Source: Schmidtea nova
Lineage: Eukaryota
DNA length: 59,857 nt
Assembly: GCA_044892505.1 (NCBI GenBank)
Contig: CM097882.1
Span: 364,068,144 to 364,128,000 of the forward strand
Direction: 5' to 3'
The position numbers were made by a program, and so were the translations under genes. The notes beneath the pieces were generated by a model. It saw nothing but the letters and a program-made list of their open reading frames with translations, did no database searches and was not told the DNA's origin. Shown here piece by piece: positions 33,658 to 57,299 of this stretch; position 1 is the stretch's first letter, and each line of letters begins with the position of its first letter.

Positions 33658-34596
33658 AAAGATCAAAGGTGAAAAAAAGATAATTATGATACTTTTATTA
33701 TAATCAATAATTACTTTTCTCCGAAATTTCTCTTTATTTTTGATAAAGTGAGTTTTTTACTATGGCATATGAATGAGTACAAATTATTAAATTGGAATTA
33801 AAAGATTCACAACCTTTTCTGAAATTAGGACATTTCAGAACAAAGCAATATTTAAGTGCGGCCATTTGGCAAGATGCGACCAATTTCTTTTTATTGTGCG
33901 GCCATTACCATTGTGATTAAAATATTAAAAAAATATTTTGTTACATTTTGTTTTCAGAAAATATTTATAGTAACAGATACCCGGTGAGAATTTAAAAAAC
34001 AAATTAAGAATCAGTAATACCCAACTGGAGTATCATTTGCTGGGATTATGGGTGGGTTCTAAATAATTAAAATAAATAGTTAATTATTAATTAAACGACT
34101 ATTGATGAGTACGTATACTAGGGATTCCACGCCCATAACCATACATAACATGACTACTACACGCGTATGCCCTTGCCTATTCCCTACTAGTCAAGTTGGT
34201 ACTGCATACGGTGGTGGAAAAATGATGGGCAGGTGAGCTTTGTTGCCAAAACTACTCCCCATTTATCTTCCCTCGGGTCCTTGCTGCCGATAGAAGGTCT
34301 TACGCAATTACATTCTATGGATGTTCGTCTCCCAATGAATTTTACACTATTTATCCTCATGAGTTATCACACGCTTTCCCCAATTGCCCTTTCCTTAACT
34401 GATCTACAAGGTAATTAATCAGTCTCTACGTAGAAACGGTCGGTCTGAGAAAAATACTGATGAGATTTTCGATTTCTAGGATTTAATTGAGTTATTTATT
34501 TTATTTAGTGAAGTCATACGATGAGAGACAAAATTTACACCAAAATACTTTTATTAAAATAATAAAAACAGGTTGTTATTTTACATCGATGTTTTC

Positions 34597-35181
34597 CTAC
34601 GCAAACTCCAGACTAATCTCCTGAATCAACTCCGCTTCGGTTAAGGAGTTCAAGTGGTGGATTTGCTCGTCCAGGCGCTTCGCAAATTCTCGGCGACGAC
34701 GACGCTGTCGCGATCCCATTCGTTGTTTTCGAAGCTGTTTGGTGAGTACAGGTACTGACGCCATTGTTCTCGATGGATCACTGAGAAAAGTAGGCAAGTC
34801 GGCTGTTACCAAAGTGGGGGCCATGATGATACCCTCTTCCGTCCCGCAAGCGACATCTTGATGAGTACTTTGTGTCCAGCGCTGAGCCGTGATCGGCCGG
34901 ATTAGCGCTCGTAATTCGGAGTCGATATAACTTCTTGTTACTGCATTTAGGCAATTTCGTAGTTCTCTCTGGACGGCATCTAGTTCCAATTTAGTTGCGG
35001 CCAGTGCTTCCTGCATTCGCTCAAGTTTTTTCGATTGGTCCTTCATTTGTTCGGGCGAGAACCACTTCGCTCTCAATTCATCATTGGCGACCGTGAGTCG
35101 CTTGATCTGCCGCTGCTGGTCCCTCAACTTCCTCTCTTGGATTTGTCCCATAATTTTCTTAGAATTTTCTGAAGTCGGCAT
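34597..35181 (-). CDS. LTR-embedded 194-aa protein: coiled coil plus Arg-rich motif
   Basis: ATG with CAG 5 nt upstream; AATAAA at 34550-34555; RKQRMGSRQRRRRRE; its last 42 nt recur at 59816-59857. Confidence 0.65.
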   Translation of the reverse strand: MPTSENSKKIMGQIQERKLRDQQRQIKRLTVANDELRAKWFSPEQMKDQSKKLERMQEALAATKLELDAVQRELRNCLNAVTRSYIDSELRALIRPITAQRWTQSTHQDVACGTEEGIIMAPTLVTADLPTFLSDPSRTMASVPVLTKQLRKQRMGSRQRRRRREFAKRLDEQIHHLNSLTEAELIQEISLEFA

Positions 35182-35509
35182 GTTGTCTGAATATTATAAC
35201 GATAAATTCGCTGGAGGACCTATCAACAATGTTATTTTATTTAGTCGACTATTTACTATTATTAAACGAGATGCATACTAATGTTTTTAATTATTGAGTT
35301 CTTTGCAAAATTATTTAACTATCTGATTATTGAAGGCTCAAAAGATTTAGTGAACTAATTTGATATTAGAAAATGGATTTCCTAATGACTATAACAACTA
35401 CAACACTGGATATTAATAAAGCTACAATACAACACTATTAACAAAATGAGACACTTCAGATTTCTCTAAAACATTTATTAAATTCAAAAACAGGTGGCCC
35501 TCGATTCAA

Positions 35510-35977
35510 CTATTCATCTTCGGTCATTTTTCCTCGATACGAAAATATCGATCTGATTTGCAAATTTGTGTTGATATTGGACGAGGCCTGCTGAAAACGG
35601 ATCCTCTCAGCTTCCCGAAGGGGTCGTATTGCTGTATGGAACTTGAACCCCAATTCCTTGAATGTAGAGGCTGGAATGAACCCCCAATATATTACACATC
35701 TCGGGAATCCTCGTTTATCTAGCATCAGAACGAACCAGGCGGCGTGCCATGATTCGAATTCCTCGTCTGGAATGATTGGCCAACTAGCACATCCCCGGTA
35801 CCATACGTGATGCCGTGGATGGTCCCATACTGTAAATGGACATGCGGTTTCAAGTTCTCGGCGCCATGCCCACATTTTTTGATGGATTTGTTGTAAAATC
35901 TCAAAAGGAGCCGGCTTTAACGGGCTAATTCGAGCTCGTTCTCGTCGCTTTTTGATGGTGAATCTGTGCTTAGTCAT
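35510..35977 (-). CDS. 155-aa Trp-rich protein of unknown function (probably within the LTR)
   Basis: ATG with TAG 4 nt upstream; AATAAA at 35474-35479; shares the 3' motif ACCTGTTTTT with the neighbouring ORF. Confidence 0.6.
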   Translation of the reverse strand: MTKHRFTIKKRRERARISPLKPAPFEILQQIHQKMWAWRRELETACPFTVWDHPRHHVWYRGCASWPIIPDEEFESWHAAWFVLMLDKRGFPRCVIYWGFIPASTFKELGFKFHTAIRPLREAERIRFQQASSNINTNLQIRSIFSYRGKMTEDE

Positions 35978-37513
35978 GATACTAGAACAATACTGAATTT
36001 TATAATAGTTAACAATTTAAATCAATTATTAAGTATAGTAGATGTTATCTCTCATCGTGATGCCTTTACTATTTGCCTTCCCCTTAGACCTTAGCTGAAA
36101 CCCAAAAAACTGTTGTTCACTACGGTATACATTACTCTCGTGTCTGCTTAGATCTATCTATTTATGATCGATAATATAGTCGGAAATTGGTGATTTGTCT
36201 GCGTGGGTATTGAAACACTGATACCTCAAAACGGAAACTCTCTCACGTCATGTATCTCCTAGCTTATTCGAAAAACGCTCTTTTGTATCAATTGCGGTCG
36301 ACCTAATTTTTAGAAGGTTTATTAGATGTTTATTTAGCAACTGTGCTGTGGTGAGGGTGAAAAATTGGGCCTCCTCACAGTCGAAAAATTCTTTCCTATC
36401 CTGCATCGTTAGATTTTATCTGAAAAATCGCCTCCTCGATAGCTAAGATGATTGAAATTAATTCCCCGGATTTGTTGGGTGTCCCATGTGCAAATCTCGA
36501 CCACTACCGATAGAATCATATTTGGTTATTTATTACTTTACCGTGTGTGGAGCCCTCGAGCACCACGCCACGGACTGACACCTTGGGAACCTAGAGCTCC
36601 CAACGGCGCAAAATTAATATATCAATATTTTTTACAATTAATCATAACAAGATTTAAATAATCAAAAATTTAATGATAACAAAAACATGCATAGTAAAAT
36701 CAATAAATCAAATTTTACCAAGTAATTCCACACAATTGATCTGATTAAGTTCGGTAGTAATACAATAGTCTGAATTAGTTTGGGGTCAAAATCGCAATCT
36801 AACAATGTCTGAATTTTTTGTCTCAACAAAAGTCTAAGTTGTACAAAGTCTAAATTTTAGTCTAAACTCTAGTCAAAAGTCTGATTTTATGAAAAATCTG
36901 ATCAGTATTTATACTGATCAGTCGTGTCTAGACCGACCAATCAAGTTCGGCCAGTTTCATGGTGGTTTTTAATTATTGTTTTTGATTCTAATTAATTTTT
37001 ATTTTTTAGATTGTATTCTTCCTTGGAGGTCCGGGTTTCCAAAAACAATTATTCAATAACAAGTACTTTTATTTGGTTTTAATTATTATTATTTGTATTT
37101 TATTTTGTTTTTAGATGTCTCCTGGGCCCGTTAATATCTAGAAATTCATTTATTTTTATTTATAGCTTGTACTTAGTTTATCTATATTTTAACTATATTA
37201 CTCCTTTCTTTTAACAAATAAATATTCCCCTTTTTACCTTATTTTTCTCTTTTTTGTTTTAATTAATCTACTTTTATTTCACTTTTCCCTCTATTTGGCT
37301 GGCCCAACATCACTCGGGGACCCCTAAAATTGCGTCCCGCAATTAATTATACATTTACACCTATATCATCATACATAAAAATTACGCAGATAAATGTCAA
37401 TTTACATATACACAAAGAATCACATAAGGTGATAGATTTTATACGTAAGCACAAAGTCATATTATTGTTAAATGTAAGTGGATCATATATACAGTGAATG
37501 TAATTTATCAGTT

Positions 37514-38086
37514 TTACACAAGCTCTTTGATTTCATGATTGGTATTGGATTGGATTGGGGTTCTTTCGCTGATTGTTCGTAGTTCGTAGAGGCTTTGGAT
37601 TCGGTTGAGATGTTTTCTCATTCGTTTTTGGGTTCTGATATCTGGTATTGTTGTTCGATTCAAGATGACTTGTTTTTGTTTTAGGATCTTTACTCGGTAG
37701 GATGTTATGAGGATTGTGATCGCGATAATGGTCACGCTGAGTGCAAGGATTATTATAATTGCGATGATCCATTTTTCTTGATATTCTATCTCTGCTTGGG
37801 CTAAGCTTTTTATGGGTTCTCGACCTTCTTTTAGGGTTTTTCTGATTGTTTTCAATTTGATTCGATGTTCATATAGGACCTGTTGAAATTTTTCGTCGTT
37901 TGGGTTGTCTAATGTTATCTGTTGAAGTTGGGTGATTTCTTGTGTTGCTTCGCTGATTAGTTTATCTAGCTCTTGATAGGTTTTCTCGGGTAGGGCTCGT
38001 AGCTCCTTCTCTGTGAGTTGAAGATCTTCTCTTTGTAGGGTGATTGTTATTAGGTATAAGAATATCGGTATTCTGAGCTTTTTCAT
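37514..38086 (-). CDS. 190-aa predicted type I membrane protein
   Basis: Signal-like N-terminus MKKLRIPIFLYLITITL; heptad-rich ectodomain; TM WIIAIIIILALSVTIIAITILITSY; basic cytoplasmic tail. Confidence 0.75.
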   Translation of the reverse strand: MKKLRIPIFLYLITITLQREDLQLTEKELRALPEKTYQELDKLISEATQEITQLQQITLDNPNDEKFQQVLYEHRIKLKTIRKTLKEGREPIKSLAQAEIEYQEKWIIAIIIILALSVTIIAITILITSYRVKILKQKQVILNRTTIPDIRTQKRMRKHLNRIQSLYELRTISERTPIQSNTNHEIKELV

Positions 38087-39359: not shown

Positions 39360-40742
39360 TTACGTCAACCATCCTTTTCTATCCGCTTTCTCGTTCCTTT
39401 CCATTTCTATATATAAGGTGTCTGCATATAATCGTTCCCATAGGTTTTCTTTCGTTATAAACATCGGTTCTCCCGCTGCTAATCCACATTCTGTGGTTGG
39501 TTTCTCGCTCGTACTCGCATGTTTCTCTGTCTCAAAGAATTTTTCTACTGGTTTTGTTACACTTCTGATTCTTACAATGACTCCTACTTTCAAGGGCCAT
39601 TCTACTAGGTCGTCGTATTCTCCTTTACATAGCGAGAAAAATATTTACACATGTGTTCCCCGTCCTCTTCCGTCTCCATTTGGGTATAGCTTCAATCTCA
39701 CTTTAGCTCCGTTTCTCCATAAATAAAATGGTGGGCTTATTACTGCTGTTTTCGTCATGTTTCGGGCCTCTGTTAATTTGTCTCTAAAATCTGTCACTTT
39801 CCACACATATGGTGCTATTGGTAGCTTTTCCTCGGTATCCTGTGTGAGTTTGTTGTACTGGATTTTCATTCCTTTAGCCAATTCTTCAATAGCTTTTATC
39901 TTTTTCTCCATTTTTTCTCGTGTTAGTTCGAATTGCTCTCTGGTTTCCAACAGTAGGCTTACCATTATCTTGTGTGACTCTATTTCTCTTTCTAATTTTT
40001 TGATCGTTTGTTCGGTTTCTTTTGTTGCTTCGTTTGTCATTTCCGCATGCTTTAGCAATGCTTCCTCCAGATGTTGTTTCATGGTTTTTTGCGTTCTTTT
40101 CTCCATACATCCCTGTTTATTATAAGGGCATTCCCTTGGTTTCTCCGTGCACACTTTCCAATGTTCTTGTAATTTTACTTCTACCGTTATCTCGCATTCG
40201 TTTGAACATATTCCTACATATTGTCTACATACTTTCTCCTCTTTTACATTCAGGTGTTCTTCTTCGATCTTTCTCCTCGTTTCTCGAGTTCCACAATATT
40301 CGCATAGACTTTCCTCTTCTTTACATTCATCTTTGTGCTGCTCTTTATTCTTTATAGTTATTTTTTGTTGGCATTTGTTACATTCAGTTCTCTTCTCTTC
40401 GCAGTTCTCCAGATGGTTCTCGAGATCGCGTATTTGTCCTTGCCATATACATGGTTGATTAATACATTCGGTTTTCGTGTTCATGATTTCTCTCTGAGTT
40501 GCTCTATCTGGTCTGGTTTCTTCGAATTTTATTTGTCCTTCTTTGCATTCTGGACATTCTGGTGGTCTCTTCATACTTAACTCGTGTATGCATTTGGTAC
40601 ATACTCTGCATCCGCATAGGGTTTGTCTTGGTTTCAATATTATGTTTTTACAATTTACACAAGTGAGTCTCTGACTCCATTTCCTGTTCTCGGCTCTCAA
40701 AATTTCGATTCTCCGCTCTTCGGCTTTTCCTTCTGTATTCAT
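39360..40742 (-). CDS. TRAF-family protein (RING, TRAF zinc fingers, coiled coil, MATH), 460 codons with one in-frame TAA at 39645-39647
   Basis: CVNC...CGCRVC RING; CNKC/CEYC/CPYNKQGC fingers; the MATH domain YVWKVTDF...SPPFY...LYPNGDGRGRGTHV*IFFSLCKGEYDDLVEWP continues in frame into ORF 39360-39593. Confidence 0.9.
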
Positions 40743-40833
40743 TCTACAAAGATATATACACTTGATTTGTTATCTATTTTTTGATTTTTCTTGTTTTTTG
40801 TTTTACATATTTACAATTTTTCGCTTTATTTAT

Positions 40834-41315: not shown

Positions 41316-43262
41316 CTATATCACCATCACTGTCTTTCCTTCGTACCGCTCTTCATCTTCTATTTGTCTCCAAAATTCTTTACCTTTCGTCCTCCTTTGA
41401 AATTCTTTCTGTACTTCTTCCGGTAATTCTATTCTGTAGTTCATAATTTTTATATCTGGCCAATGTGTTATTGGTTTCTTGTTGAGTACATCGTATATCC
41501 ATATTATTAATAACACTGTTATTACTGGAATAGTTGCTGCTAGTATTCCTAGGCCAATTAGTTCTCTAACTTGTTTGTTTACGTCCATCTTCGTAATTTC
41601 ACTCTGGTTAATCATTGGTCCGTATTGTCCCTTTAGTTTATTTAGTAGTTGTTCTCGTTCTTGTTGTTTTCTTTTAACTTCTTTAATTACTTCTTCCGGC
41701 GTCCATCTTGCGTAAGGGTCTATTACTACTTGTTCTGCGTCCATTTGTTTCGTTGTCTGACTTAATTCTTTAAATTCGAGTTTTCTCACTTTCCCTTTGG
41801 ACGTTCAGTTTACCGGTGTGTAGTACGTTTCGCATCTTTCCTGCTGATTTCCCAATATGTCCGTCTTTTCTACCGCACATATCTCGTATTCTCTATTAAA
41901 TTTCAGATTTTTGATACTCATTTCTTCTTTTCCTTTTACGGTTTCGCAGTATCGTGGCTGTCTTTCTTTTTGTTCCTGAACTACTGCCCAACATATTTCT
42001 AACGTTTTATTGTCTATTCTCCATAGTATAAGAGTTGCTGTAGTATTCTTTTCGGTTTTTATTTGTATTTCTTGGTTTTTCCGTTGTCCATTAGGTTTAA
42101 AGGTAGTGGTATACCTCGCTTTTCCTTTGTTCCGTTGTCTTCTACTTTTTCGCGTTGTCTTTCCAACTCTTGTTCTGGTGGGTGTTTTATATAATTTGCA
42201 TTCCAATTCATTTACTGTTATTTTGTCGCTTTTCCTAATCAGGCATATTTCGTACGTTTGATTGCTTTCTAATCCTTCTATCTGTATTGTGGTTGTTCCT
42301 CTGTTTGTTCGACATTGCGGCGGTGTATTCTGGTTTGTTTTCCTTTCCTGCTTCTTCCAGCATACGCCTTTGACGTCCGGTTCTATTCCGGTTAACTCTA
42401 ACATTATAGTTGTTCTCCGTTTGGTGCGTATATTTCTTCTTCTTCTTCTTATGAACTTTATTGCTTCCCCAGGTTGAAATGTTTTACAAATTGTCGTTCC
42501 TTTCTTGTGTCTTTCTTTTTCTAGTAAACATAGTTCATACGTCCTGTCTGCTTTTACTTTTGATATCTTGGTTACTTTATTTGTTTTCCTTTTCCGACTC
42601 GTCTTTATTTCGCTTATGCCAATTTCTTCGTTGTTTCTGGCCCAACACTTTGGGTTGGTATTTTGGGTGTCGTTCATCTCTGTTACTGCCATTGTGTCAA
42701 TGTCTATCCCTTCTTCTAACCGTTTTAACATTGTTAATATGAGTGCTAGACATAGTAATTCTGTTTGATAGGTCACTCTTTCGGTTTCATTTGTGGTTAC
42801 TCTTACTTCGGGCTTGTCTATGGTAATTCGTATAGTTGGCGTTGTTCGTCTGTCTATTGTCTGGGGTTTTTTGTTTTTTGTTCCTTGGGTCTCCGTTTTT
42901 CCACACTTTCCTACGACGTAGTCTCCTTTGGCTGACTGCTGTACTGTTATGGTTACTTTGGGTGTTAGGTAATTTGCACATGCAATTGTGTTGTGTGATC
43001 TTGGATTCTTTTGTTTTCTGATGGTGCATATTTTGTACCAAGTATCTAGCTCTAAGTCATCGATCTCTATGATTTCTTGTTCGTATTCTGAAATCCTGCA
43101 ATCCATTGGACTATTTTGTCCCGAGATTTTGTCCTTTTTCGACCAACATACTCGTTCGATTCCTTTTGCGTTTCTAATTTGTATTGTCGCTCTTTCTTCA
43201 CATATCATTCCTTGAGTTGGACTAATTAAGGTCATGACTATCGTTAGTAATAATAGTTCTGG
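41316..43262 (-). CDS. Predicted surface protein: signal peptide, 3-4 Cys-containing FN3-like repeats, coiled coil and TM (in-frame TGA at 41805-41807)
   Basis: PELLLLTIVMTLISPTQG signal-like segment; repeats of CW...C...I-x-I-x-x-L-x-x-(N/D)-x-x-YEIC...C-x-x-Y-x-TP; RTKR dibasic site; the frame continues into ORF 41316-41789 with TM LIGLGILAATIPVITVLLIIWIY. Confidence 0.7.
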
Positions 43263-46200
43263 TTAAAAGAATGGGTTTATTGTTTGTTTGTAGCCTGTTC
43301 TTTTTGCTTCGTTTTTATTTTTATAGTTGTTGTGTCTTTGTTTCCCAAATTCGTTTTTCTTATCATTTTTCTCTGTGTTCCTTCCTTTCTCTTCACTGTC
43401 CTCTTTATCTGATAACTCATGATCCTCTGGATTTTCTCGAGTACTATCGTCGTCGCTTCCTGTATTGTCGCCTCCCCTTTGGTCGTTGAAAATGTCGTCC
43501 TCGACATTAATTGCTTCTATCATTTTTTCATACGTTATGGTTGTGAGTATACTTGCTTCATATTCTTGTGTTTCTGCCTGCTTAGGTATTTCCTTATCGG
43601 TTAATTTACAATCTAGAATCTCTTTCTTGGCTTTTATCCAATTATTAAGGTACGTTTTCATTAGTTCTTTCCATTTGTCCGTACGTTCTGTTTCCTTTGG
43701 GTTGTTTGTGAATCGTAAATCTTTTCTTCTCATGAAGATGTCTATTATCTTTGGCCATTTGTTTATTATTAATGCACACTTTATATACAAATTTTTGCCT
43801 TGTTCCATGAACTCGTTGATCCGGAATGCTGGTTCATTGGTGTTTGGGTTCGTCCAATTGAGTATTGCTTCGGTTAGTTCAACGTTATGCATCATGGAAT
43901 GTACGCTAGCTTTTTTAACTGTCCTTGTAAGATATTCTATTTCCTCCTGATTTGTGATTGTTTTTATAAAATTTATCACCTCCCAATTGTGCGTTAACAA
44001 CGCTACGTCTAGTATTGAGCTGTCTTTGTTAGTTCTCCCCATGAGTCCTGCACCTGCTTCGTACAGTTCCTGTAACACTCGGGTTTTTGTGTTCGCTCTT
44101 GCTGCGAATATCATGAGGGTATCCCCCTTTTTATCTTTCATGTTCATGTCACTTCCGCAATCTTGCATCAACCGTGCAATTTCGACTACCCTCCTATCTT
44201 TTCCTGCTCGTAAGGCTCTATGTATTGGCAATACCCCATTCTTTGTTAATAAGAAAGTCACTGGCATTTCTCTTTTTATGATCATCATATCGTTTTCATT
44301 GTATGTTCCTTCCGCGTATGCGTGTATCTTTTCCACAATTGCTCCGAGTATCTCCAGTGTATGTTTAGAATTTTCGAATTCTGGTAATAGTTCTTTTGCT
44401 TTGTCCTGTATCGCATCCAACCTTTCTTGATATGGTACCTCTGCGCTGAAAAGTGGTGTAAATTTCCTTTTGCTTTCTCTTTCCTTTCGACATAGGAATT
44501 GTTTGCATTTCTCGGGGTGGTTTAGTATGTCTACTAGTTTGTCATACTCTTCCTCCACCGTTTTGTATTTATCTTGAAAATTGGATATATCTTTGTAAGT
44601 TATCGTCTTGGTTAGCGATTTTGCACACCATTCCCTAATTTTTCTGAATAATGCTTCTTTTTCACTTTCGAATTTACACTCCTCTTTGTTTTTGGAAATT
44701 ATGATATTTCTTCTGTCTAATAACGTTAACAGTGCTTTCTGGTCACAAACGAATTTTAATAGGAATTGTAATAACGCGTTTTGTCCTTCACTGTATACCT
44801 CGTTTATATTTAACACCCATGTATCATTTTCAGATCTTTTCCATTTTATTAGCTTGCGTATTGTTTTGCAGTTACCGATTTTTATTGCTTCCTTTATTAT
44901 ATCACCCTTGATCAGTTCGTCTATTTCCCAAGTGGCCTTCTCGATTATTTGTTTGAGCATTATCTGATTTGAGCTCCATATTACGTGATTCAAGACTGTT
45001 TTGTTTTCTCTATCGCGTTCCGTCCAGTTGAAATCGGCATTTATCAAAAGATCTATTATTGCTTTATCCGATTTGTAGATGGCTGCTACCATTAATGGTG
45101 TTTCTTGTTCGCTATTCCCAAAACCAAGGTGTTGGTTTGTTTCCTTTGCGATTTTTAGAAATTCTTTTACTCTCTCTACTTCTCCCCATTTTATGGCGTT
45201 ATGTAATGCTGGTTGTCCTCCTATGTCTTCTAGTGAAAGTATTTCTGGAATTTTTTCCATTAGTTCTGAAATGACTGGTTTTGTTGGTAGTCCCCTTGCG
45301 TAATCACTAATTATCGACTGAATATCCCTTAATATATCGTCTCTGACATGCCATCTTCCCATTATTTCTCTGGCTTTTAGTACGATTTCCTTGTTTCTTT
45401 TTTTCTGTTGCTTGTTTTCTGCTTCGATAATTTCATTGGTTGCTCTGAGCATATTCATTCTGGCTGTCTGGGATCTGGTTATTATTCGTTCTTCTGGCGC
45501 TGTGGTTATTGTTTTAGGTACTTTCTTACATCTGCATGTATTAACGTATATTGGTCGTATCAATGGTCGATTAACAAGTTTTACCTTCACATTGTTTTCC
45601 TTTTTGTATATAACTTCGTAAGGGCCTTTTCCTGGTCTTTGTAGTTTTTTAACGGTTCCTGGTATTATTTCTGGGGTTTCTATCATTACCCAATCTCCTG
45701 GTTTAAGATCATTTGTTTTAACGTTTTTCTTTTGATCGTGTAGGTCCTTGTAACTTTCTTGATAAAACTTTATGTTTAGTTCTGCTGTCTTCCATATCTC
45801 TTGCATTCGTTCTTTGAATTTGGTGACGTAATCATCTTCCTCCATATATTGAGACAAAGGTGGTTGATATTCAAGATCTATTGGCATATTGCATTCCCTT
45901 CCATACATTAATTGAAATGGACTCAATTTTGTTGCTGCGTGTATCGACATTCGGTATGCCATTAGACATAGCTTTATGTACTCATCCCAATCTGTTTGGT
46001 GTTTGCTTACATAATTGGATAACATTCGAATCAATGTGCCGTTAAATCTTTCCGTTTGTCCATTAGTTTGCGGATGATATGGTGACGTTCGTAATTTGGC
46101 TATTCTGAAGTAGTTTGTTACCTCGTCTAATATTTCGCTCATAAAATTTGTCCCTTGATCTGTCAGTATTTGTTTCGGGGTTCCATATCGGCAACATATT

Positions 46201-49200
46201 TCCTCTACTAAACTTCTTGCTACGATCTTTGCTTTTTGATCCGGCATCGCAAATGCCTCAGGGAATTTAGTCAAATAATCCGTTATTACCAATATATATT
46301 GATTCCCGTTTAAACTTTCTGGCAATGGTCCTATTACATCCATCGCAATGGTAGTCATTGGTTCCGCTGGTATTGGCATGGGTTTTAAGGGATTTTTCCA
46401 TTTCTTCCCACTATCCTTTCTTGTGGCACAAGTTAAACAGTTCTTTATCCATTCCTTTACGTCCTCGTTCATTGTTGGCCAATAATATTTTTGTCTCATG
46501 CGATCTAATGTTTTCTTATCGGACATATGTCCTCCCAACTTTCCGTCGTGGTATTGAGTTATTATCTCTTTTCGTCTATTGCCTGGCAGACACATTAATC
46601 GTTTTTCTCCATCTTGTATTAACAACCATCCTTTTTCTATTGTGTATCGATGTTGGTATTTCCTCATGTGTTCTTTTAACTCCGCATTGTCTTTGAATAC
46701 ATCCATATTTCGTGAGCTTAGGAATTCTATGATGGGTCTTAGTTCTTTATCCTCTTGCTGATCTTTCTTTAACTCACTGAAATCCAAATCCTCTGCTATC
46801 ACTATGCATATTCTTTGCACTTCTGGGTCTGTTAGTTCTGGAAACGTTAATCTTGACATGCAATCTGCGTTGGCATTCGCTTTTCCTGATTTGAATTTTA
46901 TATCTGGTGAATATTCTTGTAATTGCATCGCCCATCTCATTAACCTGCTGGATGTTTCCTTATGTTGTCCTAGCCATACAAGTGGTTGATGGTCTGTGGT
47001 TATGCATATAATGTGTCCCCATAATAGATATTTGAAGTGTTTTATTGCTAATATTATTGCCAATGCTTCTCTTTCCGTTACTGAATAATTCTTCTCGTGT
47101 TTCTTGAATGTTCTGCTATAATATCCGATTACTCGCTCTTTACCTTCGTCATCATATTGTCCTAATACTGCTCCTGCTGCATATCCACTTGCGTCGGTTG
47201 CGAGTAAAAATGGCTTTTTGAAATCCGGGTGAACCAATATTGGTGCAGTTATTAGCTTATCTCTCAATGTTTCAAAGGCTGTTTGTTGTTCGCTTCCCCA
47301 TATGAACGATACGTCTTTCTTTACTAGCTCCTGGATTGGTTTTGCAATTCCTGCGTAATCCTTTATGAACTTTCTATAGTAACCGCATAATCCGAGAAAT
47401 TCTTGGATCTGCGTTATAGTCTTTGGTATTGGACATTCTTTTACTTTATCAATGTTTCTGGGATCCGGTTCCTTTCCTTTTGCGGACACAATATGTCCTA
47501 AAAATGTCACTTTCTCTTTTGCCCAATCGCATTTCGATGGTTTGAGCTTGAGTTTCCATTGTCTCAATCTCACAAATACATCTCTGATATCTTGGATGTG
47601 TTGTTCAAATGTGCTTGAGTAGATTAGTAGGTCATCAATGTAAACCATGCATTGTTTTATGCCGTGGGTAACGAAATTCATACATCTTTGAAATGATGCT
47701 GGCGCATTGGTTAGTCCGAATGGCATTTTCCTAAACTGGTACAAGTCTCTTCCGATAGTGAAAGCAGTTTTCTCTTTGTCTTCCTCCTTCATTTTAATTT
47801 GCCAGTATCCGCTTTTCAAATCCAATGATGTAAAATATGCCGCTCCTTGTAATGTCAATAACATCTCGTTGATGTCCGGTAATGGGTATGTATCCCTTTT
47901 TGTAACTGCATTTAATCTCCGAAAATCAATACAAAATCGTTGTGTTCCGTCTTTCTTTTTCACCATTACGACTGGGAATTGCCATGGTGAGCAGCTGGGT
48001 TCAATTACTTCTGCGTCTAGCATTTTCTGTACCTCTGCTTCTGCTACTGATTTTTGCGCTTCAGCTAACTTGTATGGTCTTAACGCAATCGGCGTTTCGT
48101 CTGTTAGTGGAATCGTATGTAGTGTGACGTCGCATGTCCCTAGATCTAAATCGGATGCTGCGAATATGTCTTTATATTCTATCAGTAATCTTTCTAGCTG
48201 TTTCTTTTGATCCTCATTCAATAGTTGGCTATCAATGTTCCAAGTGGGTTCTTCCTCTTTTACTCCTTCTTTTATTGGTATTTCGATATCTATCATTGGA
48301 GTTAGTTTACCCAATCTTTCATTTTCATAAATTATTTTATCCTCTTCATCGAAATTTACTACATTTATTGGGATTTCTCCGTTGTCATTCGCACTCACTA
48401 ATCCCCTTGCCATTGGCAACGACTTTCTCTTTTCAAATCTTTTACTGGGTTCAAAGATCATGTCACCTTCTATTGTGGGATCTATTTTTACGAAGCATAT
48501 TTTCTCTCTCCGTGCTGGTACGATTATTTGTTTCGAACTTGTTACTTTTGCTTCTATTGCGCATATCTGTCCTGTCCTATCCTTTAATCTCATTGTTCCG
48601 AGATCAATAACTATTTCTTTAAATAATGCTGGCATCAGATCCGTGCCTATAATGCATGGTACGCTTAGTGCTGGTATTACTGCTACGAACGTTTCGATTT
48701 CTGTGTTTTGATGTTTTATATTCACCCACCATCTTCCTGCAACTTCTACTACTTCTTTACTGCATGCTATTACATGAACGTTGGTTCTCTCAATATCCCG
48801 TCTTTGTTCTTGTGGTATCCATTTTATATCTATTGCTGAGATATTTGCTCCTGTATCAATCATCGCTTCAATTTCCCTTCCGTTAATTTCGATTGTTGTA
48901 GTTAATACTGGACCGGTGTTTGATGACATTACTGCAATTGTATGTGAGTCTCCTTGCGGATCTACGCTTCTGCACCGTCTTGTTCTATAGTCTTCTGGTA
49001 TCATAGGATATATGTTTGTCATCGGCATCATTTGCATTGTATTTTGTCTCATCCCTGGTGTTGGTTCTTGGTACATGGTTGGTGGGGGTGCGTAACACTT
49101 CCACATTTCGGCTGGATTCTTTTCGACGTACTGTGGTACTTGATTTTTAAATACTTGACCTCCTTCGTTATCATCATCATCGTCGTCACTGGAATCGTCT

Positions 49201-52200
49201 TGGGTTCTGTACCCTTTCATTCTTTCCCATAGTCCTTTTCTCTCTTTCTTTAGTTGTTGTCTTGCTTGCTCGTTATTCATTATCTTTTTAAATTTTCGTC
49301 CCACTTCTTCATCGGTTCCTTTCATTTTTGCCAGTATTTTTAGGAGTCTTTTTATTCGGTGAATATCTTTTGAATGACCGTGTAATACCATTGTTTTAGC
49401 CAAAAATGGTAAGAATCCTACCACCAATTTCCAATTTACTTTCTTTTCTCGTTTATAGATGTCAAAACAGGCTAACATTTGCGTTATTATTACCCGTATT
49501 ATTTGTATAATTAGTATAACACCAAGTATACCTGCCATCATTTGTCCAAATATTAAAAATCTTCCCCACATCGCTTTCATCATGTTTTCCGTTGCCTTCT
49601 TAAAGTGGGCTGGTGACAATAATAATTCGTAATTTGGTCCACCTTGGTAATTTGTTCCTCCTGTTATTGTTACAATACTGGATAACACCGCTTCCCTTCT
49701 TGCTGGAAATAGTATGTTTTGTCTTGCTGCTTCTAAATCCTTTGCGCTATAGAATCCCATATTACTTACATCCACGTCTTTAAATTTTCGTCCTTTTGAT
49801 AGTTGCATCAATTCAAATTCCCTTGGTGCTGGTACCTCTGTTCTTGACGGAAACATAACCCAATTCCCGTCTGGTTTTTGGTATAGTGGTCCATATGCGT
49901 TGCTGCAATTGAAAGGGTTTGGTTCGAAGTTTACTGGATTTATGATTCTTGTCACTGGTTGCACATATCTTACTTTCCCTTTATATTCGATTTCTAGTTC
50001 GTTAGTACACTGACCTGGTTGTAGTTTTGTCATTGTCGCTACTTTCGCGTTTGTCTTTTTACATATGTATACGTACATGACCTCTCCGACTACCCTTCCA
50101 AAATGACCTTCTCTTAATGGTAATAGTGGCATTGCACTATCCGGGTTTGTGATTGCTACTGCTAGTTTTGTCTTTAATATTTCCCTATTTAATATACAAT
50201 CGTTATTTATTAAATCGTAATACACTTTTTGTAGTGACGCTTGTCCTCTATGGAATAGAAAATCCATTTTATTGTTCATGTAAAGGTGTAATTTAACATC
50301 GTTCGTGTGCACTTTGCGTTTCGCACTAGGTACTTCTTGTTTTGATACAAAAATGCCGGGGTAGTTGGTTTCCAACATGGCTACTCCGCATTTCAAGGCT
50401 GTTTTTCCTTTTACAAACCTCATTCCGATATCTGCATCTGAGGTAATTAGTACCGTTGGTGTATTTCTCATTTTAATTTGTTTTTCTTGTGTTCGGGTTT
50501 CAATCTTTTTCTCTCCCCGTACTGTGTCTTGAAGTATTTTTCCTCTTGCTGCCTCGTCTTCTTCTTCCTCTTGGAAGGTTTTCCCTTGTATCTCATCGAA
50601 TTCTGCTTCCTTTAGTAGTTGTAGTTGACATTCCTTTCCTCGTATCTGGTATGTTAGGGTTGACATACCCGTCTGACAAGTGTTTGACTCGATTTTGCAC
50701 ATTGGTAGGGTTTTCATTTCTCCCGTTGTTGGATCGAAGAATGTCTCGTACGTTTTTAATTCCACTGTATAAGTATCTATTACTACTAGGTTGGTTGCTG
50801 CTACTCCGAATATTGGATATGTTGCTCCTTGGCAATACCCTTCTCCTCCAGTAATAGCTCCTGCTACATAATATGTTTGTTGCAATATCACTCCCGTTTT
50901 TCCTCTTATCTTTACTCTATCTCTAGTCTCTACTTCTCCATGTTTGAATAATTTTTCACAGTCTTCTCCTTGCAGCATTACCGACTCTCTTTCCGTTCCT
51001 GGCATCACGATTGCTGAATAATGGCGGTGCCCACAATAAAAAGCAAATCTGGTTTTATAAACTTTGCATTCCCTGACCATTGTTCTTATCAGTTCCGCTT
51101 CCTGATATACGTGGTATAATTGCCTCTTTTTTAACGTTTTTAGTTCCGTTGGGGTTGCGTTTTTACATTGTTCTATCCCTCGTAATGAGTATTTTTCACC
51201 TAATGCCATTTGATCGCAATCGAATACTTCGAATGCTGTTGCGCCGTCAGTACTAATCATCCATATTAGCATCATCATAATGATGGAACTCAGGTTTAGT
51301 GTCGATTTTCCGTTTCCTGTTCCCGACTTTTCCTTTTCCAATTCTCCCAATATCTCTTCGAATTTCTTTTTCATATTTTCGGCTTGGTTTTTCTTTTGGT
51401 TTGTTTTTGTGAATATTTCCCATCCTCCTTTACTGATGATGTACGGTTCTATTTCCTTCTCTATAATTTTGGCTGTATTCTTTATATGTCTTTCAAGTGC
51501 TGTGGGTTTCAGTCGACCTCTACTCAGTGTCAGCAGATTGTAAATGGTGTATGCCATAGCTATTAAATATTTGTTATCCGTCTCTGCTCCTTCCGTTAAC
51601 TTCTTTATCAACATCGTGGTTCCTTGCCAATCTAGGTGGTTTGACCTTGTCTTTTCTTTTATTAGTTCTGGTAGGATTGGTGCGATGGCGCTATGCAGTG
51701 ATTTCGCCCTTTCGCTTATTTCGTTTATTCTCCACCATTTCTTTAATTCCGGATCGATTATTGCCAGTATTTCCATTAACATCTTTGATATCCATTCTTC
51801 GCCTTGGTATGTTTGTGTTGTTTCTTTTTCTTTCGTTTCGGCTATTTTATTTAGTTTCTTTAGACACAAATCCCATTGATTCCGTCTTTTTTCCTCTCTT
51901 GATTTTATAACTACATTTGCTGGATCCATCTTGGGTCTACCCCTAGGTCGTTTATCCATTGTCGTGCCCGTTTCTACTAATCTTGTTTCTCGTCCAGTTT
52001 TTTCTGTGACGTCTCTTGGTTCATTGGCTCTTTCTTCTAACCATCTTTCCATTTCTTGTGTGAATTGTACATTTTCTACATTTGCCCTCCTTGCTTCCTC
52101 TTCTGCTATTTCATTTACTTCTTCTATGATTATTTCTTGTTCGACTTCATCTTCGGTGTTGGTTACCGGTATTGCTGTTGGTAATTCTTGAATTCTTTCG

Positions 52201-53246
52201 AAAATATTATCATCTTTTTCTTTTGTTAGCTCTATTAGCTCCTCTAACATATCATCGCTATCTGTAAAAATTTCGTCTACATCGTATGGTTCTGGTGGTG
52301 TTCTTTCTCTTGTCTCTCTTGGTGTTGTTCTAGCTTGTTCTGAGCTTGTTCCTGGAGTCATTACCGATTTCATTGGGCTCGGCGTACTCATACTTCCTTT
52401 TGGTTTCTTTTCCTCTTTCAATTTCAATGGTTGACCTGCTATTGCTGCCACTGTCAATGTATTTGCGATATCTAATTGCGCTGGCGTTATTCCAATTTCC
52501 AAGCTGTTATCTAATGATCGTCCTTGGTGTTGTAAATGGAATGGTGGTTCATATCTCAATTTCTTTTTAATGTCTCGAACTTTCTCCGCTATTCCTACCC
52601 AAAACTCTTCCTTTTCTTGGTTCGGATATACTATTCTTAGGTGTACTTTCTGTGGCGATTCCTGCGAGAATTCCTGGTTTCTCCATTTTTTAATTACGTG
52701 ATCCAATTGTTCTGGACACCACTCGTTAACTCTTTTGTATTCGGCGATTGCTTTTGCTACTTTACGCAAGCATGTTATGTCTTCTCCATTAACTACGAAA
52801 AAATCTGCGAGACCTTTTACTAATTTTCTCTTTCCGTGCGCATTGGTTTTTAATATTTCGACAAATTCTTCCGTTTTTTGTTTCTCTCTTTCCAACCACA
52901 TGGTTGCCGTTTCTGGTCCGTCTAAATCTGCTGGCATGGCTTTTCTTGTTACCATACAGACTCTTCCGGTTTCCGGTTTGTGATCGTCTTCTATGCCTAT
53001 TTCATATTCTTCTTCGTATTCGCCTGCTTTTGGTTCCCAACATTTTCCTCGTTCGTTCCATTGTTTTTCTACAGGTGTTCGTAATCGTCTGTTGAGATTG
53101 AGTTCTTCTAATACATTTTCCCATTCTGGCCAAATCCGCCAATTTCGATAGATGTCTACTATTTGTTGTAATTTGTGCACAACTTCTTTTTGTCGTTCTC
53201 GTTCTCTTTTCTCATCTTTAGCAGTTTCTCTTGGTGTATCGTCCAT
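43263..53246 (-). CDS. pol: 3327-aa polyprotein: UBL, AT-hook, Bcl-2-like, envelope glycoprotein, protease, RT, RNase H, integrase, ankyrin repeats
   Basis: AMIDTGA (PR, about 48850); LDLKSGYWQI, FGLTNAPASFQR and YIDD (RT, YIDD at 47631-47642); TDAS/TDH/NADCMSR (RH); HHCC, MDVIGP, TDQG, TERFN and GPY (IN). Confidence 0.97.
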   Translation of the reverse strand: MDDTPRETAKDEKRERERQKEVVHKLQQIVDIYRNWRIWPEWENVLEELNLNRRLRTPVEKQWNERGKCWEPKAGEYEEEYEIGIEDDHKPETGRVCMVTRKAMPADLDGPETATMWLEREKQKTEEFVEILKTNAHGKRKLVKGLADFFVVNGEDITCLRKVAKAIAEYKRVNEWCPEQLDHVIKKWRNQEFSQESPQKVHLRIVYPNQEKEEFWVGIAEKVRDIKKKLRYEPPFHLQHQGRSLDNSLEIGITPAQLDIANTLTVAAIAGQPLKLKEEKKPKGSMSTPSPMKSVMTPGTSSEQARTTPRETRERTPPEPYDVDEIFTDSDDMLEELIELTKEKDDNIFERIQELPTAIPVTNTEDEVEQEIIIEEVNEIAEEEARRANVENVQFTQEMERWLEERANEPRDVTEKTGRETRLVETGTTMDKRPRGRPKMDPANVVIKSREEKRRNQWDLCLKKLNKIAETKEKETTQTYQGEEWISKMLMEILAIIDPELKKWWRINEISERAKSLHSAIAPILPELIKEKTRSNHLDWQGTTMLIKKLTEGAETDNKYLIAMAYTIYNLLTLSRGRLKPTALERHIKNTAKIIEKEIEPYIISKGGWEIFTKTNQKKNQAENMKKKFEEILGELEKEKSGTGNGKSTLNLSSIIMMMLIWMISTDGATAFEVFDCDQMALGEKYSLRGIEQCKNATPTELKTLKKRQLYHVYQEAELIRTMVRECKVYKTRFAFYCGHRHYSAIVMPGTERESVMLQGEDCEKLFKHGEVETRDRVKIRGKTGVILQQTYYVAGAITGGEGYCQGATYPIFGVAATNLVVIDTYTVELKTYETFFDPTTGEMKTLPMCKIESNTCQTGMSTLTYQIRGKECQLQLLKEAEFDEIQGKTFQEEEEDEAARGKILQDTVRGEKKIETRTQEKQIKMRNTPTVLITSDADIGMRFVKGKTALKCGVAMLETNYPGIFVSKQEVPSAKRKVHTNDVKLHLYMNNKMDFLFHRGQASLQKVYYDLINNDCILNREILKTKLAVAITNPDSAMPLLPLREGHFGRVVGEVMYVYICKKTNAKVATMTKLQPGQCTNELEIEYKGKVRYVQPVTRIINPVNFEPNPFNCSNAYGPLYQKPDGNWVMFPSRTEVPAPREFELMQLSKGRKFKDVDVSNMGFYSAKDLEAARQNILFPARREAVLSSIVTITGGTNYQGGPNYELLLSPAHFKKATENMMKAMWGRFLIFGQMMAGILGVILIIQIIRVIITQMLACFDIYKREKKVNWKLVVGFLPFLAKTMVLHGHSKDIHRIKRLLKILAKMKGTDEEVGRKFKKIMNNEQARQQLKKERKGLWERMKGYRTQDDSSDDDDDDNEGGQVFKNQVPQYVEKNPAEMWKCYAPPPTMYQEPTPGMRQNTMQMMPMTNIYPMIPEDYRTRRCRSVDPQGDSHTIAVMSSNTGPVLTTTIEINGREIEAMIDTGANISAIDIKWIPQEQRRDIERTNVHVIACSKEVVEVAGRWWVNIKHQNTEIETFVAVIPALSVPCIIGTDLMPALFKEIVIDLGTMRLKDRTGQICAIEAKVTSSKQIIVPARREKICFVKIDPTIEGDMIFEPSKRFEKRKSLPMARGLVSANDNGEIPINVVNFDEEDKIIYENERLGKLTPMIDIEIPIKEGVKEEEPTWNIDSQLLNEDQKKQLERLLIEYKDIFAASDLDLGTCDVTLHTIPLTDETPIALRPYKLAEAQKSVAEAEVQKMLDAEVIEPSCSPWQFPVVMVKKKDGTQRFCIDFRRLNAVTKRDTYPLPDINEMLLTLQGAAYFTSLDLKSGYWQIKMKEEDKEKTAFTIGRDLYQFRKMPFGLTNAPASFQRCMNFVTHGIKQCMVYIDDLLIYSSTFEQHIQDIRDVFVRLRQWKLKLKPSKCDWAKEKVTFLGHIVSAKGKEPDPRNIDKVKECPIPKTITQIQEFLGLCGYYRKFIKDYAGIAKPIQELVKKDVSFIWGSEQQTAFETLRDKLITAPILVHPDFKKPFLLATDASGYAAGAVLGQYDDEGKERVIGYYSRTFKKHEKNYSVTEREALAIILAIKHFKYLLWGHIICITTDHQPLVWLGQHKETSSRLMRWAMQLQEYSPDIKFKSGKANANADCMSRLTFPELTDPEVQRICIVIAEDLDFSELKKDQQEDKELRPIIEFLSSRNMDVFKDNAELKEHMRKYQHRYTIEKGWLLIQDGEKRLMCLPGNRRKEIITQYHDGKLGGHMSDKKTLDRMRQKYYWPTMNEDVKEWIKNCLTCATRKDSGKKWKNPLKPMPIPAEPMTTIAMDVIGPLPESLNGNQYILVITDYLTKFPEAFAMPDQKAKIVARSLVEEICCRYGTPKQILTDQGTNFMSEILDEVTNYFRIAKLRTSPYHPQTNGQTERFNGTLIRMLSNYVSKHQTDWDEYIKLCLMAYRMSIHAATKLSPFQLMYGRECNMPIDLEYQPPLSQYMEEDDYVTKFKERMQEIWKTAELNIKFYQESYKDLHDQKKNVKTNDLKPGDWVMIETPEIIPGTVKKLQRPGKGPYEVIYKKENNVKVKLVNRPLIRPIYVNTCRCKKVPKTITTAPEERIITRSQTARMNMLRATNEIIEAENKQQKKRNKEIVLKAREIMGRWHVRDDILRDIQSIISDYARGLPTKPVISELMEKIPEILSLEDIGGQPALHNAIKWGEVERVKEFLKIAKETNQHLGFGNSEQETPLMVAAIYKSDKAIIDLLINADFNWTERDRENKTVLNHVIWSSNQIMLKQIIEKATWEIDELIKGDIIKEAIKIGNCKTIRKLIKWKRSENDTWVLNINEVYSEGQNALLQFLLKFVCDQKALLTLLDRRNIIISKNKEECKFESEKEALFRKIREWCAKSLTKTITYKDISNFQDKYKTVEEEYDKLVDILNHPEKCKQFLCRKERESKRKFTPLFSAEVPYQERLDAIQDKAKELLPEFENSKHTLEILGAIVEKIHAYAEGTYNENDMMIIKREMPVTFLLTKNGVLPIHRALRAGKDRRVVEIARLMQDCGSDMNMKDKKGDTLMIFAARANTKTRVLQELYEAGAGLMGRTNKDSSILDVALLTHNWEVINFIKTITNQEEIEYLTRTVKKASVHSMMHNVELTEAILNWTNPNTNEPAFRINEFMEQGKNLYIKCALIINKWPKIIDIFMRRKDLRFTNNPKETERTDKWKELMKTYLNNWIKAKKEILDCKLTDKEIPKQAETQEYEASILTTITYEKMIEAINVEDDIFNDQRGGDNTGSDDDSTRENPEDHELSDKEDSEEKGRNTEKNDKKNEFGKQRHNNYKNKNEAKRTGYKQTINPFF
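43970..45225 (-). other. Two ankyrin-repeat clusters C-terminal to the integrase
   Basis: GQPALHNAIKWG, ETPLMVAA, NKTVLNHVI; GVLPIHRAL, DKKGDTLMIFAAR, DSSILDVAL. Confidence 0.88.
49380..51300 (-). other. env: Envelope domain: chuvirus/Monjiviricetes-like (class III, gB-like) glycoprotein
   Basis: Internal signal SSIIMMMLIWMISTDGATA; FDCD...YSL...C; CK...CGHRHYS; GYCQG; CG...ETNYPGIF; YMNNKMDF; GEVMYVYIC; CTNELEI...VQPVTRII; TM FGQMMAGILGVILIIQII. Confidence 0.85.
51400..51800 (-). other. Bcl-2-like domain
   Basis: BH2-like IEPYIISKGGWEIF (GGWEIF at 51411-51428) closing a helical segment of about 130 aa. Confidence 0.7.
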
Positions 53247-53264
53247 TCTGATAACGTGGATGGT

Positions 53265-56200: not shown

Positions 56201-56750
56201 CATCTCCATTAAACGGTTCTCCGGAAAATTTGTCTTTTATTTCTTCTCTGGGTTCGCTCATTTCGATTCCGCTGTCTGTAGTTATTTTACTTTCGTTTCC
56301 TCTTGTTTCTAGTTCACTGTTATGTTCGTCACTCGAATTTATGTCGATCTCAGTTTCCTTTGCTGATTCGTTGTCCGATGCTTTACTATCGTTATCGGTA
56401 TCGTCACTTTCTGTTTCTTGTTCTACTTCGTCTTCTATTTCTTCTATATAATCGTTGTTGGTTTTGTCGACTTCTATTTCACTTATTGGGTTTCTCTCGG
56501 GTTCTGCTTGATTTTCTTTGTTGCTTGAACTGTTGCTTGTTACTGATAATTTATCGTTTTCGATAATCGATTTCTGTATTATTATCTTCCTCGCTTTACT
56601 TCCTTTTAGGCCTTTCTGCTTATTATTCTTGGTAGCTTTATTCTTTTCTGCTGGTTTTATTACCACACTATTTGGGTCCTCTTTGTTGATTTTACTGTCG
56701 ACTTTCTTCTCTGCTGGTTTTATTATGACACTCTTTTCTCCTTTTCTCAA
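53265..56750 (-). CDS. gag: Extended Gag, 1161 aa: acidic N-terminus, capsid, 3 CCHC knuckles, Q/N-rich tract, two ubiquitin-like domains
   Basis: Capsid about 55740-56230 (PFNGD...YLKDSAL...QKINES...FVGGL); CKTCGKLGHWQQEC, CGKCGVKGHSESRC and CFNCGRPGHLSRKC (55398-55550). The listed start is TTG; the first ATG is M164 at 56261. Confidence 0.93.
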   Translation of the reverse strand: MRKGEKSVIIKPAEKKVDSKINKEDPNSVVIKPAEKNKATKNNKQKGLKGSKARKIIIQKSIIENDKLSVTSNSSSNKENQAEPERNPISEIEVDKTNNDYIEEIEDEVEQETESDDTDNDSKASDNESAKETEIDINSSDEHNSELETRGNESKITTDSGIEMSEPREEIKDKFSGEPFNGDASKLETFLKEFGIFVEVCKWKPETTVSRIQLYLKDSALDLYLEAKNGINPPTSWSAIKDFFQQTFGINKVLNEAFTEFSMRKQKINESNAVYASELKKLAKLIFNQDSPINEELMAAIFVGGLRRPDIRAQVGCQGCKTIDQALETANRFELHMIGNDGRIYLAMDTAQNEQEVNLNNHIPNSQQLNRPPPQRRNEGNKVSNFGNQSNYNPQGPTKQCKTCGKLGHWQQECYQNLNCGKCGVKGHSESRCYTITCFNCGRPGHLSRKCGQRSNQRGNWQNIGNQPTGGNQPNYGNQPNNGNRPEYGNQQNNNNNNQNKNTPKEIHLMQEVQRLTEQINNTNRGNPQTGQQQINMMRKIESENKRLNRESQARHAQEWARIQREEEQKQQERERQPLRINMMRATNQTNTHEKETVPEINPTNLNPTNNESRKEIVPGSEEAEKETEKEVEKEGNQEEKWKLGKRGMMVILPNKHVFRFQYNIKEEVGILFNKVNEMAPGVTKLPREAFLKIEGAPEVKLKLTDIWENMGVVETKRNVMVIKEIEPEGIPPPVRHETRISRIFKGKMIRRRLGEIDELERKMRKVEVVDDKSESTQKAIKSETRPTEDTPSEINQIKHINMLRGQAKNFSDDEEDSDVSSLAGDMLNEPEIEDKKIEVVKTPETIQVKEDEIEKLLDNALEVIYNEEFIDKKHYRKFMRAILQMNYKEWLPGREVETLSQYVGKLLKEPLHEYIILIQIKTCLPRIWIKTPLTEDIYQWVEDRLGSSYKNKFLYSQNGLVKKRTHLIETGIWPGEVTTLSIYDDKREENLQEVAKEANTCFEKKIKPRLEYEKKRILRGNLNSMIEQIIPQIKKHRKELMRSEYEKLKRCIECIRDTSHTRWSQISYGKVIAKMGKAMFRQGKITDLKISVELPNEDTKEIEVVADCTIKELVNVINETLLQREPEEEWEDDIIMKYNEHVLWDHDERRLYKIGIWDNH

Positions 56751-57299
56751 CGGGATTACTTTTGTATACTCAATTTTCCTGTCTTATCGTATTCCGATTC
56801 TTTTCTTCCTTGGTTGCTTGGTTTGGTTTGATTGATTTATCTAAAATACAAATGTCACTTCAACGATACTCTATTGTTATCGTTGCGCTTTTATTCCCTT
56901 TTTACGGGACTTCTCATTACTGGGTTTCTATTATTTTTCCCCATTCCCAGATTCCCCTTTATTTAAGTCTATTTAAATTATCTATATACTAGTCACAATT
57001 ATCTATTTAGTCATAACAATTATCTATCGATTATTAAAATACATCCATTATTTTTCCCGCGGTCTCCCAATTTATTTGTCGTTCGAACGCTCTAATTCCC
57101 TGAGTCATTTGACTCGATTATTATTTTATCATCTCTTTATCTTTCTCTCTGCTAGCCTCTAATTATTAATTCTGCCGGTCTTTCCGGTCAGCTCCTATTT
57201 CTCAATTCTATTTGCATGCATTATTTTAGGTCGCATAATCCGCTTTACTCGCATTTCTCAATTATTGGTGCGCACTATTCTCATTATCGTCGACGATCA

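Follow-up and report, generated by a model that had tools for sequence, protein, structure and literature searches.

An FN3-like repeat gene carried by a Burro-like giant Ty3/gypsy element of Schmidtea nova

Which protein is encoded at nucleotides 41316-43262 of a 59,857-nt stretch of the Schmidtea nova genome, and does it assist the envelope glycoprotein of the element in which it lies? The stretch, hereafter the window, covers positions 364,068,144 to 364,128,000 of contig CM097882.1 (GCA_044892505.1). A preliminary description made from its sequence had proposed a single surface protein here, with a signal-like segment, Cys-paired FN3-like repeats, furin-like sites, a stalk and a transmembrane (TM) segment, acting as an attachment partner of a class III fusogen or as a decoy receptor. 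The span turned out to consist of two open reading frames (ORFs) on the minus strand that occupy one frame and are split by a TGA at 41805-41807, and the proposed membrane protein joins the two across this stop codon. ORF A holds the signal-like segment, four FN3-like repeats and basic linkers, and the TGA follows directly after repeat 4. The stalk and the TM do exist, but in ORF B beyond the TGA, which keeps the anchor out of the open frame of the ectodomain. The features of the span, in transcription order, are as follows.

43209..43256, minus strand: signal-like h-region and c-region, with a single -3/-1 site after Gly18 (between TQG and M)
41805..43262, minus strand: ORF A, 485 codons from stop to stop, first ATG 43235, no TM
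42957..43208, minus strand: repeat 1, FN3-like in the model, with two Cys pairs and strands B-G, strand A being short or absent
42726..42758, minus strand: internal hydrophobic stretch LLCLALILTML (11 residues), then KR
42471..42719, minus strand: repeat 2, the most divergent by repeat comparison, without one Cys of the first pair
42414..42449, minus strand: polybasic linker RRRRRNIRTKRR, with the canonical furin-type motif R-X-[K/R]-R
42174..42413, minus strand: repeat 3, FN3-like by a structural match (Z 6.9), with fn3 at E 0.16
42132..42152, minus strand: second basic linker, RKSRRQR, with the minimal R-X-X-R only
41811..42086, minus strand: repeat 4, homologous to repeat 3 (z 16)
41805..41807, minus strand: in-frame TGA between the FN3 ORF and the stalk/TM ORF, from the reading frame
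41316..41804, minus strand: ORF B, 162 codons from stop to stop, ATG 41744

The claim of repeats with paired cysteines held for all four copies, with one Cys missing from repeat 2. The motif Y-x-[IL]-C-x3-4-K-x8-14-C occurs four times in ORF A, as does CW, and seven columns are invariant across the repeats; both Cys pairs are found in three of them, while repeat 2 keeps the second pair and one further Cys. All six repeat pairs scored above shuffled sequences (z 3.6-17.1), the observed score being reached in 0/2000 shuffles for four pairs and in 1/2000 and 9/2000 for the remaining two. Cys, Trp and Tyr are kept across the repeats despite almost no DNA similarity. Judged by pattern, no repeat other than repeat 4 has a full strand A and the strand-B Trp. 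A fifth repeat in the linker between repeats 1 and 2 was suggested by a pairwise z of 3.9 and was discarded, its score against the four-repeat profile (1.8 bits) being below that of shuffles, and the same profile found no fifth repeat elsewhere in the window.

Structure prediction agreed with the FN3-like assignment made earlier. Modeled by AlphaFold2 with the four repeats as alignment, repeat 1 is predicted to form a six-stranded sandwich (pLDDT 81, pTM 0.69). FN3 domains or FN3 scaffolds account for 44 of the 46 matches listed by Foldseek for this model (best E 3.2e-3). Among the matches listed by VIA, FN3-containing proteins fill 50 of 50 places (Z 8.6-7.2, rmsd mostly 2-3 Å); a VIA Z of 7-8 may reflect a common arrangement, but the list here is uniform, and Z has fallen no lower than 7.2 by rank 50. 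Repeat 3 also matched FN3 in a single-sequence model made independently (Z 6.9), and the only sequence match among 1.84 billion representatives was a distant FN3-repeat protein of bacterial type (E 3.9e-4), whose FN3 repeats match repeat 3. Language-model features (Atlas; fn3 score 0.89) and a poor single-sequence fold of the whole ORF A (pLDDT 41) served only as leads. The cut-off of Pfam fn3 (PF00041) was not reached, the best value being E 0.16 for repeat 3, one of the four repeats, and the whole ORF A gave at best Fn3_ELFN at E 0.7. The repeat profile retrieved tenascin at no better than E 1.4-2, neither sequence nor structure searches reached a solved FN3 at E<=0.001, and no ORF A homologue was found among 4,315 near-length candidates or in PDB sequences.

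Like the family of PF00041 (fibronectin, Dscam, LAR, NCAM, class II cytokine receptors), the repeats have the beta-sandwich topology and the pattern of an E-F loop Leu and a strand-F Tyr. They differ from it in two cross-strand Cys pairs, in modules parted by basic linkers and in a score below the Pfam cut-off; in its model, repeat 1 also lacks most of strand A, as its alignments begin at about FN3 residue 14-20. The Cys pairs lie on neighboring strands C/C' and F/G in the strand list of the repeat-1 model, a predicted placement that fits disulfides. We regard the FN3-like nature of the repeats as supported, by predicted models for repeats 1 and 3 and by homology for repeats 2 and 4. The four would be anciently duplicated, disulfide-pinned FN3 modules, by prediction for repeat 1 and by homology for repeats 2-4.

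Both basic motifs described earlier are present, and of the two only RRRRRNIRTKRR has the full furin-type consensus. In an ORF as rich in K/R as this, the motifs alone are of modest significance (shuffle P 0.014-0.03); Arg is enriched in the linkers, with 22/135 residues vs 20/332 in the repeats (P=0.001). The hydrophobic stretch LLCLALILTML is likewise in place; its supposed TM-like character did not survive, because 11 residues are too short and the best 19-mer scores +8.0 kcal/mol vs -1.9 for the TM of ORF B. A second cleavable signal was considered for the same stretch and dropped, there being no -3/-1 site. An apparent short DNA likeness links this region and the first signal region. ORF A further has 5 N-glycosylation sequons and a codon bias of 0.40 bits/codon, vs 0.38 for gag.

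The gene is carried by a giant LTR element on the minus strand, with an estimated length of ~28.5 kb. Its parts outside the span are as follows.

59257..59857, minus strand: visible part of the 5' LTR, then a primer-binding-site-like sequence
58441..58902, minus strand: RING-finger accessory ORF in the 5' leader (PF13920, E 5.5e-12)
53265..56783, minus strand: gag, with retrotrans_gag and two CCHC knuckles, in the frame common to pol, A and B
43263..53264, minus strand: env-pol ORF of 3,333 codons, from Pfam and a reading of hydrophobic segments
43259..43271, minus strand: splice-acceptor-like site, with the pol stop 43263-43265 lying in its pyrimidine tract
39360..40769, minus strand: TRAF-like accessory gene, its MATH domain interrupted by an in-frame stop at 39645-39647
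37514..38086, minus strand: accessory membrane ORF with an N-terminal hydrophobic segment, charged ectodomain, strong TM and basic tail
34038..37309, minus strand: 3' LTR, ~3.27 kb, outer end from the direct repeat, inner end estimated

The order of transcription is RING ORF, gag, env-pol ORF with ankyrin, ORF A, ORF B and further accessory ORFs. The direct repeat pair 34038-34638 / 59257-59857 is identical at 601/601 visible nucleotides, the 5' copy being cut by the window end, and the inner end of the 3' LTR (37309) was set by a TG start after a purine-rich motif. The 3,333-codon ORF encodes a weak BCL2-like region (E 0.092) upstream of env, an internal signal, a class III env, a TM, PR, RT, RNase H, IN and ankyrin. 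The class III fusogen noticed in the preliminary description is of the gB/chuvirus type (PF24664, E 3e-69) and lies upstream of PR. LTRs together with the order PR-RT-RH-IN place the element in Ty3/gypsy (Metaviridae-like). The accessory ORF at 37514-38086 is another extra surface candidate beside ORF A; a paralogy of ORF B to it was weak (9/1000 shuffles), likely TM composition, and was rejected.

Most features of the planarian Burro/GYPSM1 elements, as reviewed in PMC6431247, recur here, and we assign the element as a Burro-like Ty3/gypsy element with a gB-type env. These are the size of ~28.5 kb, a CCHC gag, env in frame between a BCL2-like region (here only a weak match) and the protease, the ankyrin, TRAF/MATH and RING cargo, accessory ORFs and AT-rich host DNA. 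Knockdown of piwi raises Burro RNA in the animals (PMC8532177). Published Burro ORF1s are single polyproteins of 4,873 and 5,140 aa (PMC6431247), whereas an uninterrupted ORF1 of ~4,900-5,100 aa is lacking here: gag, env-pol, A and B form a single frame of 5,156 codons in which three stops occur. In this copy pol precedes TRAF, no BIR domain was found in the 11 ORFs and the 3 ORFs of two Pfam scans, which covered a part of the short ORFs in an element whose 5' LTR is cut off, and the FN3-repeat and TM ORFs after pol are absent from the domain list of that review (PMC6431247). ORF order and env type also resemble the Platyhelminthes group of GAG-ENV-POL errantiviruses with HSV/gB-type env (PMC13524379); among the six Schmidtea rows given there, our env is by eye nearest to Smed_errantivirus_5 and identical to none. 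That study annotated gag, env and pol only, and its main text uses the words "fibronectin" and "burro" 0 times (PMC13524379). A search with the pol ORF returned only 7 generic gypsy polyproteins, the ankyrin tail had no match and no Burro protein was retrieved; as the family seems absent from the searched sets, empty searches say nothing on conservation.

The copy is partly damaged, with three stops in the long frame and a fourth inside the TRAF MATH domain, whose halves on both sides of 39645-39647 match PF22486/PF21355 in register; the latter stop tells that the copy carries lesions. Several other observations concern the element and its surroundings. A GGACG(A)CA(A/T)TTT...GGGG motif, resembling the gypsy 3'-end/polypurine region, has three copies on the minus strand at 59011, 43500 and 37337, and the copy at 43500, just before ORF A, may mark an older 3' end, with the accessory block added later. 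The Pumilio-element-like motif TGTA[ACT]ATA occurs 10 times on the minus strand of 37300-41320 vs 0.39 expected (at most 4 in 1000 local shuffles), mostly just past accessory ORF ends, and only once in 41320-56783; the clustering suggests a shared post-transcriptional control of the accessory block. Two minus-strand ORFs, 34597-35181 (194 aa) and 35510-35977 (155 aa), lie inside the LTR as delimited here and match no Pfam family below E 0.45. Three tandem-repeat arrays with a spacing of about 30/61, 41 and 97 nt are found in the 5' leader at 57343-57965. The gag C-terminus (53217-53546, minus strand) possibly includes a ubiquitin-like domain with its last strand perhaps past the gag stop; a domain spanning the gag/pol stop, seen by eye, was not adopted, as Pfam gave only E 0.09 and not across the stop. 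The flanking host DNA contains a hAT transposase ORF with a BED finger (8602-10434, minus strand), a broken Tc1/mariner transposase (31100-31837, minus strand) and several MITE-like inverted repeats, e.g., 30060-30572.

How could the product of ORF A reach the cell surface? The signal-like segment was correctly recognized as far as its h-region goes (codons 3-13, 43224-43256), but it has no Met in front of it: the first in-frame ATG is codon 10 (43235), inside the h-region. As the h-region starts before this ATG, initiation at 43235 yields no signal peptide, and secretion needs splicing, read-through or an uninterrupted polyprotein. To judge from the Cys pairs, the single -3/-1 site of the signal-peptidase rule, the sequons and the basic linkers, ORF A likely encodes a secretory-pathway protein. 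The acceptor-like site at 43259 is one of only two among 491 YAG sites in 41316-56783 with at least 6 T and at least 8 pyrimidines in 11 nt. An acceptor-like site is found at most 30 nt upstream of 4/10 ORF starts, against 3.2% for random windows (P=2e-4; the threshold was picked once the list had been inspected). Splicing to 43259 would bring in no in-frame Met from any of the 13 donor-like sites of the LTR copy and leader, and would do so from 4 of 10 putative donor-like sites inside gag-pol. Acceptor-like sites on the minus strand lie at 58906, 56841, 53248, 43259, 41194, 40744, 39233, 35982 and 35187, with one good donor-like site at 58163; their position before most ORF starts suggests a set of subgenomic mRNAs. 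As to read-through, the env-like ORF of SIRE1 follows pol after a single stop and is expressed by stop suppression (cited in PMC2829016). SIRE1 is a plant copia element. No read-through signal was detected here, and RNA structure was absent downstream of the four stops (z -0.12 to +0.62).

Were A and B once a single gene? ORF B encodes a charged stalk, a TM (41493-41561) and a 58-residue tail, without a Pfam family or a usable Atlas match. The three junctions of the long frame are short, in the same frame and stop-free, with a joint chance of about 0.0013, vs 1/5 of the downstream junctions in frame. No frameshift occurs over the 15.5 kb, and signal and TM segments alternate coherently along the whole frame. 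The 60 nt past the TGA look coding (C 15%, T 15%, vs C 7-13%, T 23-38% in spacers), no strong acceptor precedes the ORF B ATG, and no 3'-UTR-like motif follows ORF A, unlike the downstream ORFs. At least three post-insertion nonsense changes have a probability of about 8% given the identical 601-nt LTRs, a figure that does not bound changes inherited from a defective parent copy. In favor of an A-B precursor are the single frame, the coding-like 60 nt, the TRAF lesion and the lengths of Burro ORF1s; against it is the position of two stops, the TGA immediately behind repeat 4 and the pol stop within a strong acceptor-like site, as if the gene boundaries had been designed. The identical LTRs, which leave little room for three or more nonsense changes since insertion, and the absence of an accompanying frameshift also speak against it, and no relative for a comparison of fusion or conservation was found in the databases searched. 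We place an original A-B precursor somewhat ahead of two separate genes.

The reading that we find most likely, and hold tentatively, is an accessory precursor of type I from which convertases release FN3 modules that act on host cells. ORF A would thus be an accessory extracellular gene of the Burro-like element, and in the element lineage A and B most likely made one precursor in the order signal, four FN3 modules, stalk, TM and tail. Entry into the ER would use 43209-43256, which would act as an internal signal where the polyprotein ends, like the one of env itself, or come into use after splicing. Disulfides would then form, convertases would cut the basic linkers down to single modules, with the N-terminal modules shed, and the last one or two would stay anchored through ORF B. 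The modules would most likely bind a host surface, matrix or signaling protein and modulate the host, which is the weakest step of the scheme. In the present copy the TGA uncouples the anchor, and the product may be soluble, made by low-level read-through, or absent. Three points lead us to favor host modulation: the other cargo concerns apoptosis and ubiquitin signaling, most of the ectodomain would be lost on cleavage of the linkers, and the close relatives of this class of env work alone. The case for a host role of the modules is the neighboring TRAF, RING, ankyrin and BCL2-like cargo, which a decoy or host modulator may suit at least as well as an attachment protein. Poxviruses offer an analogy, as they secrete FN3-domain cytokine-receptor decoys and thus have soluble FN3 beside ankyrin, BCL2-like and RING modulators. 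The likeness to ORF A is in layout only, with no sequence or structure match shown. In general terms ORF A may be compared to an accessory protein of a virus, displayed at the surface or secreted, that is built on a host-type FN3 scaffold.

A possible alternative, to which we give less credence, is that A and B are separate genes, A giving secreted, convertase-processed soluble FN3 modules from a spliced subgenomic mRNA entering at 43259 and B an independent small membrane protein. As this concerns gene structure and the function could match that of the shed precursor, our confidences in the two are not additive. The stop directly past repeat 4, the acceptor-like sites near ORF starts (with their post hoc threshold), an ATG of its own in ORF B, the young insertion and the general rule that downstream ORFs of LTR elements typically come from spliced messages (PMC5408684) speak for it. 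The 13 donor-like sites of LTR and leader that supply no in-frame Met, the same-frame A/B junction without spacer and the missing 3'-UTR-like motif after A argue the other way. More doubtful is a relic: the ancestral gene would have been functional, and this copy with its four stops would be mobilized in trans without making a secreted product; initiation at ATG 43235 would give at most a basic fragment that lacks the signal and stays in the cytosol. The stop in the TRAF MATH domain, the lack of a Met before the h-region, of read-through structure and of a compatible leader donor, and the decaying Burro copies with stops reported from Dugesia japonica (PMC6431247) are in line with a relic. It is at odds with a frame free of frameshifts over 15.5 kb, the codon bias that ORF A shares with the element and the Cys/Trp/Tyr kept across diverged repeats, and a defective copy here would leave function in sister copies untouched.

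The role put forward in the preliminary description, a virion attachment or receptor-binding partner of the gB-type fusogen, with the linkers as maturation sites or heparan-sulfate-binding patches, is possible and in our view unlikely; nothing in the analysis linked the ORF A protein directly to the fusogen. ORF A has its frame and element in common with env, A and B joined would have a type I layout, and the FN3 fold serves as a scaffold for binding. The gB of herpesviruses depends on gD/gH/gL, and how gB-type errantiviruses enter cells is given as unknown (PMC13524379). A two-glycoprotein entry system had been called unusual for an LTR element, yet nematode belpaoviruses (Atlas/Cer) encode phlebovirus-like Gn plus Gc, i.e., two envelope glycoproteins in one LTR-element polyprotein (PMC9094657). 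Their class II fusogen was captured as a viral module, whereas here a class III fusogen is accompanied by a separate host-like FN3 array after pol, and a two-glycoprotein LTR element with a gB-type env was not found in the literature surveyed. Against the partner role, ORF A as encoded has no anchor, cleavage at the furin-type linkers would remove most of the ectodomain, and no match at E<=0.001 was found in a viral structure library. The env also falls in a chuvirus/Monjiviricetes-type family; relatives of that family, such as rhabdovirus G and baculovirus GP64, carry out both binding and fusion unaided. In an extended version of the same idea, which we find improbable, Burro-like elements would be endogenous viruses of a complex kind, with a second envelope precursor at the end of their 5,000-residue frame; the captured, furin-matured FN3 array would serve receptor binding or triggering for the gB-type fusogen, and a leaky stop would switch between an anchored form and a soluble decoy. 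If true, ORF A would be the first case in a retrotransposon of an entry protein accessory to a class III fusogen, and would identify the partner still missing from gB-errantivirus entry. The anchored two-glycoprotein reading stands unproven, and one stop codon contradicts it as encoded.

The FN3-repeat accessory gene is real and apparently undescribed, in a giant retroelement of a type already known. The literature surveyed, including PMC13524379, PMC5408684, PMC12440569, PMC3315495 and PMC9094657, gave no account of LTR elements with FN3 cargo; Grohme 2018 and Lee 2026 lie outside that survey and may annotate these ORFs. The weight of the finding is limited, as it comes from a single, partly damaged copy for which no relatives were found. 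Being invisible to Pfam, such an array would be missed in annotation, and its small, doubly disulfide-pinned modules cut from one precursor would be a natural counterpart of engineered monobodies. For gB-type errantiviruses, whose entry is stated to be unknown (PMC13524379), ORF A is a concrete candidate. The intracellular cargo of this type of element (IAP-like, BCL2-like, TRAF, ankyrin) has drawn attention because Burro1 is reported to protect planarian stem cells (PMC13465017); an extracellular FN3 array would add to that toolkit a part that works outside the cell, as is seen in large DNA viruses.
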